Origin: Chrysomallon squamiferum
Lineage: Eukaryota > Animalia > Mollusca
Direction of reading: 5' to 3'
DNA length: 64,000 nt
NCBI GenBank assembly: GCA_012295275.1
Contig: CM022677.1
Coordinates: forward strand, 10,106,001-10,170,000
Position numbers and translations under genes: made by a program. Shown here one piece after another: positions 2,690-6,515 of the stretch; within the stretch, counting starts at the first letter, position 1; the number at the start of each line of letters is the position of its first letter. The notes below the pieces were generated by a model. The model did not search any database, was not told the DNA's origin, and saw nothing but the letters and a program-made list of their open reading frames with translations.

Positions 2690-2757
2690 CTTTCTGAAAA
2701 ATGATTTTCCCTTCATGCTGCTCATCAGGTTATGATACAAGACTCCACCCTGTGAAG
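2690..2757 (-). CDS. SQOR: SQOR alternative exon 8c
   Basis: TACTAAC branch point (2785-2779), TTTTCAG|(A)SQGGVLYHNLMSSMKGKSFFRK|GTAAAC; 68 nt, phase 1-0, open. Confidence 0.87.
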
Positions 2758-2802
2758 CTGAAAACATGTTCAACTGTTGTTAGTATCAACATCAACACAA
2801 AG

Positions 2803-3219
2803 CTGGTCTGGTCAGGTAACAACTGTGTGGACTGAAGGCTGGACAGCAGTACAGAGATCAGTGACGTAATGATAAAGATTTTTAAGAACAAGGAAAGGTT
2901 CTTATAATTCTTTTTCCTAATAGTTATATATTTTATTGTTGTTGTTTTTTTTTATTTATTTGATTTATTCATTTAAAAACATTTTTTTATTTTTTTAGCA
3001 TTCCTGAATTTCTTATCTTTTTAGATTTGGATTTTCTAAAATTATTTTTTGTAAGGTAATTTAACTTTTTAAAATTTATTTTTATTACATAATTTATCTT
3101 GTATTTTTCATTTATATTATTAACATAATACAAAACTTAAAGGAAATGAAAAAAAATTAAAAGGTTTTAAGGTATTGCTGTCCATGCCTGTGTCCACTGA
3201 ACACTGCTGGCCAGACCAG
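2803..3219 (-). promoter_or_regulatory. Long-range intronic RNA stem (arms 3172-3219 and 2803-2852) between exons 8b and 8c
   Basis: GC-rich inverted repeat in AT-rich intron: 12/13 + 6/6 + 4/4 + 12/13 base pairs in colinear order. Confidence 0.75.
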
Positions 3220-3233
3220 TGGTCAACTCTCAC

Positions 3234-3301
3234 CTCAGATTTTGGTGATCGGCCAGCAATGATGTCTGTTAGATTGTGAAAGAGAACAATGCCCTGAGCC
3301 A
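3234..3301 (-). CDS. SQOR: SQOR alternative exon 8b
   Basis: CTTGCAG|(V)AQGIVLFHNLTDIIAGRSPKSE|GTGAGA; 68 nt, phase 1-0, open. Confidence 0.85.
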
Positions 3302-4157
3302 CTGCAAGATATTAGTTTAAGTTACTGTGAGTAAATTATTTCACACTCACACACAAACACTCAACCCACAAGCACTATTAGTAGAAACATATCCTTCTGT
3401 AACACACTTGTACATCATGTAAATTACACTTAATACACATTCAAAAAACAACCACTAGAAAAGAAACAATATATACAGATATAGATATAGATATGTAGCT
3501 AGATAAATAAATAAAAAAACAAATACTAATACTACTACTAATAATAATAAATAGTAATATAATAATAATAATAATAATAATAATAAATAGTAATATAATA
3601 ATATAATAATCATAATAAATAATAATAAATAATAAATAAATAAATAAAAATGAGAACAAAAGATAAAAGACTAATATTTTGTTATTTATGTTAGCATGAC
3701 TCAATGTTTTCATCATACATGTAGCCAGCCATACATTTATCATTAAAAACAGTGCATCAGCAACTTTTCATTTCAAAACAATCATTTGTCAGATGACGTG
3801 TTATGAAAACAAAATAACATTTTTACCAGATGTCACTAGCAGAGGCTACCAGTTAACTAACATGCACACAAACAAGATTTATATATATATACATGATAAA
3901 AAAGATAAACACTAGAATACTAGTAACATAAGAAAAATAATAAAACATGAAAATGAAAAACAAAATAAAAAAAAGATGCTGATAGAAAGATTACTGATTA
4001 TCAGTGTATCTTTGTTGTTAATCCTTGTTTCCTGTCTTTTAAGTTGCTGTAAGAGATAATGGTTGATATGATTTTTCTCTGAGGTTTTTTCCCACACTAT
4101 ACAAAGTGGACAACATTCTGCAGATTATAGGTTTCCATTGTTGTTTTAACACAACTT

Positions 4158-4325
4158 GTGTGTGTATATGTATGTGTGTGTGTTTGTGTGTGTGTGTGTG
4201 TGTGTGTGTGTGTGTGTGTGTGTGTGTGTGTGTGTGTGTGTGTGTGTGTGTGTGTGTGTGTGTGTGTGTGTGTGTGTGTGTGTGTGTGTGTATGTATGTG
4301 TATGTGTGTGTGTGTTTGTGTGTGT
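4158..4325. repeat. (TG)n microsatellite, representative of dozens of (CA)n, (GA)n, (TA)n, (TAA)n tracts in the window
   Basis: Direct inspection. Confidence 0.95.
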
Positions 4326-4970
4326 TTCCTTATAAGTGAATATGTATGAAACAAATGAAAACATATTTCTGCGTATGTTAACCTAAACACGAGCAAAATA
4401 TTACATCTGACATTTATCATCAACAGTCAGTGAATATTAAACAACAATATCAATATTAAAAATATTTTTTAAAAACATGTACACACTGATATATCTAAAT
4501 GTGTTAAAATTATCTAATGATGAGGTGATTAACAAATGAAATGTCTTTTAGACAAAAATAAACTAAAAACATTATTTAAATTTCAAATTTTTTAGAATAT
4601 AAACAAAATCACTTTAAGAGATCAGCAACACACACACACACACACACACACACACACACACAGACACACAGACACTATAAACAAAAAGTACTGTGACAGG
4701 AGAAATTATTTTCATCATCTACATCCGCTGTGATAATGGAGTAATTTGTAAAAATTACTTCACTTGTCCCAAACCCTTTGTCCACAAACACAGAAAAATA
4801 CAACTCTTTTCAGTTCTGTTGACACAAGTGTTCAGTTAATCCTGAGATTAATGATAAAAACTGAAAACAGAAACAGTTTAGATTTGTGTAAACTAAACAA
4901 AGTATACACCGATGACATTTTAAATACACTGTAAACTAAACACGCTTTTAGAGATTTGCATTGGTTTTTG

Positions 4971-5388
4971 TAATTTAGTTGTTCATAGAGATTTTTTTAT
5001 AATTTAGTTGTTCATAGAGATTTTTTTTATAATTTAGTTGTTTATAGAGATTTTTTTATAATTTAGTTGTTTATAAATATTTTTTATAATTTAGTTGTTC
5101 ATAGAGATTTTTTTATAATTTAGTTGTTTATAAATATTTTTTATAATTTAGTTGTTCATAGAGATTTTTTTATAATTTAGTTGTTTATAAATATTTTTTA
5201 TAATTTAGTTGTTCATAGAGATTTTTTTATAATTTAGTTGTTTATAAATATTTTTTATAATTTAGTTGTTTATAAATTTTTTATAATTTAGTTGTTTATA
5301 GAGACTTTTTATAATGTAGTTGTTCATAGAGATTTTTTATAATTTAGTTGTTTAGAAATGTTTTATAATTTAGTTGTTTAGAGATATT
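4971..5388. repeat. Minisatellite, ~29-30 bp unit (TAATTTAGTTGTTCATAGAGATTTTTTTA), ~14 copies
   Basis: Direct tandem units with two variants (catagaga / tataaata). Confidence 0.9.
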
Positions 5389-6444
5389 TACTTTGTTTTT
5401 TATAAATTACAAAGTTTTTCAGTTTTCACTTAATGATATCAAGGTGAGATAACAACATTCATAGAATTTTCTTTACTTCATTTCTTTTACATTTGTACAA
5501 AGACTAACAAATTTCTTTATAAATTAATTAATTTAAAATCAACAATAAACTACAGCATCAGAAGTAAGTTTAATATAATCCAGGTAAAAAGTCAGTGATA
5601 TAAATTATTATATTAATTAATTTATTATTATTATTATTACTTCTTCCTTTGTTGGGTTCCTTTTTTTGATTATGTACCTGTTTAATTTTTTCTATTAAAA
5701 AGTGGTATTATTTTTCTACTACAAACTTTCATAAGGAGAATGTTTTCCACAATAAGAATGAAAGATTTTTATTTTTTATTATTTTTTATTAAACATGAAG
5801 AAAGTATAAAACAGTCCCAAAAATAAAATAAGTAAAAAGAAAGAAAAGTAAAATAACAATCTGGTAAGAAACAAAGTATATCACAGCTGTCATAAAGTCA
5901 ATAGATCCTGAACAGTTTACATTTATACAGATATATTTAAACTTGTTTTTTTCTTTATTCTTTTGTTTTTATTGTTGTTATTATTAATTCTAAAAGCAAA
6001 ACTAAAACTAAACAGGGAACTAATCTAAGCATGCATGCCAAACAAAGATACTAATTTACTAACCACAAACTATTATTATTATTTTATATATATATATATA
6101 TATATATATATATATGTATTGGGTTTTTTTCTTAAATGGAGCTATAGAGCTACCTTGGAAAATATTATTATATCTTTACATACTGAAAATAAAAACAAAA
6201 TATAGTTGGGTGATTGATGTTATTAATTTTAAGACAATTAGTATATTTGTATATTTAATTACATTTGCAGGTTTATTTGTAATAACTTTTATCTACATTT
6301 AAATACAAACAGCATTTGTTAGTAGAATAAGTACATATATTAGTTAGTAATGAAGGATATTAGTAGTGGGGTGATAGTTACTATGTTACCACTACTACTA
6401 CTATTACTACTACTACAGCTAGGTTACATGGTTACCATGGTTAC

Positions 6445-6515
6445 CTCATGTTTAAAAACACGTTTTCCTTGCATCACTGCTAAAAGATTTCTCTGCAGAG
6501 GGTAACTCATTGCAG
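6445..6515 (-). CDS. SQOR: SQOR alternative exon 8a
   Basis: TTACAG|(A)AMSYPLQRNLLAVMQGKRVFKHE|GTAACC; 71 nt, phase 1-0, open; L-x-x-N-L-x5-G-K pattern. Confidence 0.8.

Follow-up and report, generated by a model that had tools for sequence, protein, structure and literature searches.

How many versions of the enzyme can one SQOR gene of a vent snail encode? How fast animal mitochondria clear sulfide is determined by SQOR, and vent animals with sulfur-oxidising symbionts need to survive sulfide yet supply it. In a stretch of 64,000 nt from Chrysomallon squamiferum (the window), a sequence-only reading had noticed three tandem, apparently mutually exclusive exons in this gene, placed between the FAD motif and the second catalytic Cys, and had proposed that one gene gives rise to at least three isoforms. 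The evidence gathered here makes it probable that exon 8 of a single SQOR gene is present in three divergent tandem copies, with A and C, and likely B, each spliced in on its own. The resulting enzymes would be alike outside one helix, predicted to lie along the flavin, and likely differ in activity.

The window is AT-rich (GC 0.25-0.38) and contains an intact SQOR gene on the minus strand. Exons 1-7 run from 20817 to 7836 and comprise 342 codons without a stop, ending in phase 1:

20614..20817, minus strand: exon 1, with ATG, N-terminal leader and GxGxxG FAD motif (tblastn 80% to residues 1-70 of Gigantopelta aegis isoform X1; donor GTGAGT)
15509..15679, minus strand: exon 2 (tblastn to G. 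aegis and splice sites)
15075..15128, minus strand: exon 3 (tblastn to G. aegis and splice sites)
12215..12412, minus strand: exon 4, with the first catalytic Cys in a CAGAP motif (human Cys201)
10575..10678, minus strand: exon 5, with a GC donor at its end (RNA loose ends at 8878 carry the letters of the exon 5-6 junction)
8768..8876, minus strand: exon 6 (RNA joint 8022/8768 in 4/4 runs)
7836..8022, minus strand: exon 7, constitutive, with GD motif and PTSKTAAA, ending in phase 1 (PDB match to human SQOR, E 2.7e-18)

The closest protein to exons 1-7 is XP_041355810.1 of the vent snail Gigantopelta aegis, with 268/342 identical residues (78%); identity to a mammal SQOR amounts to 56%. In a tree of 22 rows the window SQOR pairs with its G. 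aegis orthologue (99/93); the G. aegis paralogue P0085 joins next (100/97), followed by abalone, a placement that makes a peltospirid vent snail other than G. aegis the likely source. Both catalytic Cys motifs (human 201 and 379) are present, CAGAP in exon 4 and the second one in RNA loose ends of the next exon. Human SQOR (PDB 6OI5, 6MO6) has the same fold, both Cys motifs, and the same helix and spacing. Judged by full-length homology and by fold, the latter through a proxy model, the gene is a eukaryotic SQOR, for which sulfide-dependent quinone reduction is predicted. The donor of exon 5 is GC (10575-10574, minus strand), i.e. a GC-AG intron, in agreement with the RNA loose ends at 8878. 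Intron 1 harbours a direct duplication of 368 bp that is 95% identical (17084-17450 and 18575-18942).

Behind exon 7 lie the three copies of exon 8:

6445..6515, minus strand: variant exon 8A, 71 nt, 24 residues, with Met for the family Gln and Tyr-Pro in the helix (both junctions in 4/4 runs; 15/23 to the G. aegis X1 segment)
3234..3301, minus strand: variant exon 8B, 68 nt, 23 residues, the most diverged (exon 7-B junction in 1/4 runs; 9/23 to the G. aegis X2 segment)
2690..2757, minus strand: variant exon 8C, 68 nt, 23 residues, nearest to the family consensus (acceptor junction in 1/4 runs, donor junction in 2/4)

Positions, lengths, AG/GT sites and the 1-0 phases are exactly those read from the letters earlier; the peptides given then omitted the last 5-6 residues of each cassette. 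The donors are GTAACC (A), GTGAGA (B) and GTAAAC (C), a YAG acceptor precedes each cassette, and all three are open once the phase-1 codon of exon 7 is completed. The strong nucleotide divergence noted before also holds, as only 20-29 of 56 positions are identical between cassettes, and A resembles B or C at 7/18 residues or fewer. We built a family profile from 192 unique family segments, leaving out G. aegis X1-X3. C scored 34.0, A 28.8 and B 21.3; among 45,690 stop-free 18-mers from the six frames of the window, the one ranking next reached only 0.2. The window therefore holds exactly three family-like cassettes, far beyond chance. In a further profile comparison the score of B fell below those of all 147 family segments. 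At the donor of A there is a 9-bp tandem repeat of 2.8 copies (6422-6445, minus strand), which provides additional donors in frame at 6436 and out of frame at 6428; the RNA uses 6445 only.

The reading frame limits how the cassettes can be combined. According to RNA loose ends, the next exon, which is situated beyond the left end of the window, begins in phase 0 with the YDGYTSCP codons, so that skipping A, B and C all together shifts the frame, as had been expected. The expectation that two joined cassettes would break the frame was equally borne out, since A+B, A+C, B+C and A+B+C all meet a stop 10 codons into the second cassette. The locus displays two hallmarks of a mutually exclusive exon cluster, namely tandem homologous exons of like length and the same phase, and no productive double inclusion or skipping.

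Which of the cassettes are used was read from assembled RNA contigs of four runs of one study, compared with positions 5700-9200 and 1-4140. Such contigs speak for presence, not for absence or level, and junctions were counted from the rows listed. Exon 7 is connected to A by a GT-AG joint in 4/4 runs, and in each of them the loose end at 6445 continues into the next exon; a single 1718-nt contig of run X4 reaches from exon 6 through 7 and A into the next exon. The exon 7-C joint occurs in one of the four runs (X2), and in two (X2 and X3) C is joined to the identical next exon as A, the two junctions of C in run X2 being located on two overlapping short contigs. B is joined to exon 7 in one of the four runs (X1, visible from both sides), but among the rows listed its junction with the next exon was found in 0/4. 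Altogether, RNA supports five of the six cassette junctions. A and C are singly joined to both constitutive neighbours, and B at its acceptor only, with a full B-like isoform annotated in G. aegis. Long RNA contigs of several runs also cover intron sequence (563-3464) around and behind B and C, maybe slowly spliced pre-mRNA or DNA in the libraries.

More than one cassette is therefore spliced, contrary to the possibility, considered earlier, that a single one is ever used. An origin of the cassettes from pieces of distinct SQOR gene copies, or from misassembly, is very improbable. G. aegis does possess a second SQOR gene, P0085 (XP_041355640.1), on the same chromosome-scale record, to whose segment C is identical at 10/23 residues. 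However, tblastn detected no further SQOR exons between the cassettes, a single exon 7 is spliced to all three, A and C lead into one and the same next exon, and RNA contigs cover the B-C region as assembled. Among the rows listed, no joint was found within 1-4140, which means no B-C join, and the loose ends listed at 6445, the place where A-B or A-C joins could show, lead to the next exon only.

It is harder to decide whether B contributes protein. A rather unlikely scenario is that only A and C do so and that B is decaying or regulatory, its acceptor being used and its donor masked, so that unproductive RNA would arise and lower the SQOR level. Apart from the missing donor junction, it is favoured by the contigs that cross the B donor at 3234 unbroken in each of the four runs, by the run X1 contig with exon 7-B, which continues unspliced to 2516, and by the family score of B, the lowest of the three. 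Yet B has lost neither splice site, its length is exact and its frame open, and it retains the Gln, Asn-Leu and Gly positions; four contig sets of one study may miss a tissue using B, and in G. aegis isoform X2 is a full-length B-like form. We regard it as almost certain that C. squamiferum makes at least two in-frame isoforms, and lean towards three. Of the earlier three-isoform claim, the single joining of A and C at both ends stands; for B, the next-exon joint was unseen and the donor is read through.

G. aegis provides the comparison with a relative. Its SQOR isoforms are predicted RefSeq models from automatic annotation, XP_041355810.1 (X1), XP_041355811.1 (X2) and XP_041355812.1 (X3). 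Isoforms X1 and X2 are identical save for a 23-residue segment. The X1 segment matches window A at 15/23 residues. The X2 segment is nearly equidistant from the three cassettes, with 9/23 to B, 8/23 to C and 7/23 to A, and its assignment to B therefore depends on the C-terminal residues and the order. The presumed B counterparts are thus 9/23 identical as against 78% for the constant part, a point against the reading favoured here. Isoform X3 has the X2 segment followed by a 14-residue tail and a stop. The first three residues of this tail are the same as those of window C read out of frame, and when all back-translations of the tail were read in the shifted frame, the family profile gave 37.5. 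By the same procedure, 0/5000 shuffled tails (maximum 30.3) and 0/2969 natural 14-mers (maximum 22.7) did as well. In G. aegis, therefore, B is followed by a C-like exon and X3 results from double inclusion; the three members of the G. aegis cluster include no C-only isoform. The orthologue thus has counterparts of all three cassettes, A and B as isoforms and C as an exon following B, and the cluster is common to both genera in this protein-level comparison. In frame, the annotation of G. aegis has A and B, with C out of frame only; the RNA of the window has A and C in frame. The paralogue P0085, sister to the cassette-bearing gene, has a 25-residue segment and one isoform among those listed.

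To judge how unusual such a pair is, we compared 290 of 338 proteins that have both flanks, giving 505 pairs with flanks at least 95% identical. Isoforms X1 and X2 of G. aegis are the most divergent of these pairs (segment identity 0.43) and the only annotated isoform pair below 0.7. The other pairs below 0.7, P0020/P0021 and P0270/P0272, belong to separate clusters and are not annotated isoforms of one gene. Among the members listed (up to 15 per cluster) for abalone, limpet, mussel, oyster, scallop, crustacean, urchin and mammal, no alternative form of the segment was found at the protein level, the human enzyme differing from that of the snail in this respect. On this sample of animal clusters, restriction of the cassettes to peltospirids is likely, not proven. 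The Solemya and Mytilus SQORs occur as tandem gene models, i.e. as whole-gene duplication rather than exon swapping. A search for short proteins with an A-like region gave 26 matches, of which the best did not exceed 61% identity across most of the query; metagenome contigs, scanned for exact 32-nt matches, gave 0 loci.

What would exchanging the segment do to the enzyme? By alignment with Cys379 as anchor, the cassette corresponds to residues 343-365 of G. aegis X1 and 350-372 of human SQOR. The AlphaFold models of G. aegis X1 and X2, proxies for A and B, both have a pLDDT of 92.6 and place a helix at 339-357, from which a loop leads to the Cys-bearing strand; the X2 model superimposes on human SQOR with an rmsd of 0.9-1.0. 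The cassette encodes most of this helix, and constant exon 7 its first turn. The predicted position of the helix flanks the flavin. The earlier statement that the isoforms differ next to the active site is thereby retained for the predicted helix beside the flavin and narrowed to a second-shell position, the cassette having no catalytic Cys. Both models, calculated without FAD, are alike in secondary structure over the cassette, and thus show no functional difference.

A difference is suggested by individual residues. Position 3 of the segment is Gln in 180/192, Glu in 11/192 and Met in 1/192 family segments, and position 6 is Pro in 1/192. A carries both rare residues, Met and Pro, in both snails, whereas B and C keep the Gln. 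In the related NDH-2, according to PMC5299459, the isoalloxazine ring is bonded by backbones at the equivalent helix start, and Q325 (Glu or His in others) uses its side chain to bond the GD motif near FAD. Going by motif spacing in an alignment, and not by superposition, Q325 would be the analogue of human Gln352. Because of the two rare residues in both genera and the role of Q325, we propose A as a retuned enzyme. With Met at the Gln352 position, A would lose the side-chain hydrogen bond to the flavin-binding GD loop, which might affect how the flavin is bound, the redox potential or the stability, but not the Cys chemistry. The chances that the isoforms are functionally distinct appear about even. 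Alternatively, all variants are spliced but equivalent, a tolerant surface helix having been duplicated as an exon, with decay removing errors. The free variation of much of the segment in the family, the same helix in both models, and the divergence of B and C, which is faster than that of the rest of the protein, are in favour of equivalence. On the other hand, A has kept Met and Pro in both genera and is closer between them, at the 15/23 given above, than to B or C, and, had the three copies been redundant, decay would be expected since a split dated at 71-184 Ma (PMC7895826). We therefore consider equivalence unlikely, more so than a silent B, and retain the reading of three exon 8 copies with differing enzymes.

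How, then, is one exon chosen? Steric exclusion by short introns is ruled out, the introns measuring 476 and 3143 nt, as is U12 incompatibility, all cassette introns being GT-AG. For small exon clusters frame-based decay is a described route (PMC6071210), and it fits here since all cassette combinations stop early. Single choice would be enforced mainly by the frame, double inclusion leading to a stop and nonsense-mediated decay. The exclusivity claimed earlier stands insofar as double inclusion is unproductive, but it is not absolute, as G. aegis X3 is a B+C product out of frame. In addition, scanning of the B-C intron revealed a stem, a structure predicted from one sequence:

3171..3228, minus strand: 5' arm of the predicted RNA stem in the B-C intron, beginning 6 nt into the intron (predicted duplex -58.4 kcal/mol)
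2790..2853, minus strand: 3' arm of the predicted RNA stem, ending 32 nt before the C acceptor, near a branch-like CTAAC at -26

The B-C intron has a folding z of -4.29. None of 400 shuffles matched the stem 3228-3171 / 2853-2790 when the arms were shuffled separately. Against the best partner anywhere in 193 tiles the count was 0/45 shuffles, and as reciprocal best 0/12. As a control, one of 11 intron geometries also beat 100/100 shuffles (intron 3, with CA/TG repeats). With its start 6 nt inside the intron and its end close in front of the CTAAC, the stem would hinder both B-C joining and the B donor, the latter also in line with the scenario of a masked B donor. By closing the B-C intron and crowding the B donor against the branch point of C, the predicted stem may help to enforce single choice; the fact that G. 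aegis does make B+C counts against such a block. A G/U-rich element at about 470-391 (minus strand) is the second partner of the B-downstream arm (470-394, -50.6, 1/150) and the top partner of the A-downstream one (0/17, with a small margin). It is a possible downstream docking site, and its pairing may be promiscuous. A-upstream (8/17) and B-upstream (5/17) have no special pairing partner, and among the 25 longest of 477 inverted repeats in a scan there were only CA/TG microsatellites. A pairing of the exon 7 donor with C-upstream was rejected, because it gave 0/400 alone, but 19/45 shuffled queries equalled it somewhere in the region.

Retuning of an enzyme by a mutually exclusive exon swap is known from exons 9 and 10 of PKM. 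Tandem homologous exons of which one is chosen, as here, also occur in human ATE1 (exons 7a/7b) and insect Dscam1, where decay of double-inclusion products and intronic pairing are described mechanisms (PMC11802352 and PMC6071210). The snail cluster differs from these in having three variants in a respiratory flavoenzyme, with a single strong predicted pairing inside the B-C intron and a weak candidate for a shared docking element. Exon swapping is well known as a kind of splicing, and its presence in SQOR appears undescribed beyond automatic RefSeq models. In line with the earlier impression that it had not been described, our literature search, which covered subscription journals little, found no report of SQOR splice isoforms altering the catalytic core. 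By term search, the main text of a 2025 SQOR review (PMC12589024) has 0 matches for 'splicing' and 'isoform', neither host SQOR nor splicing is a topic in the main texts of PMC7895826 and PMC7142155, and 'mutually exclusive' is absent from their searched supplements. In the supplement of PMC7895826, host SQOR is given with a log2FC of 2.43 and an FDR of 0.044, presumably in the oesophageal-gland table and for either paralogue. The SQOR of the glass scallop, a sulfur-symbiotic host, has a positively selected N270L according to PMC13212745; there, too, host SQOR diversified in a sulfide-rich habitat, though by substitution and not by exon swap.

The tandem exon duplication would have occurred before the two genera split, and after or around the gene duplication that gave rise to the G. 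aegis paralogue, C presumably being the ancestral-like and A the specialised form. In PMC7895826 the split is dated at 116 Ma (71-184), and the symbioses reportedly evolved independently. Tentatively, and with more doubt than for the exon cluster itself, one may suppose that peltospirid vent snails evolved a splicing switch acting on the flavin-flanking SQOR helix and predating these independent endosymbioses, in which A is catalytically distinct (in flavin potential, sulfide affinity or sulfur acceptor) and selected by tissue to destroy sulfide or to spare and route it. If true, splicing would allow the animal to tune sulfide oxidation. Three natural 23-residue versions, with the remainder of the enzyme unchanged, allow a direct test of per-tissue tuning of host SQOR kinetics, and also bear on the role of the conserved Gln352 helix in the human enzyme.

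Some features of the window lie apart from the cassettes. On the plus strand, 1049-1081 is an antisense look-alike of exon 4, with 10/11 residues as in the G. aegis paralogue (tblastn E about 0.6) and 26/34 bases as in exon 4 of the window, by chance or as an old inverted fragment. An open frame of 119 aa at 46891-47250 (minus strand) is presumably akin to a hAT-type transposase fragment. Finally, 60895-61448 is a minisatellite with a 36-bp period and open frames of ~180 codons on both strands.
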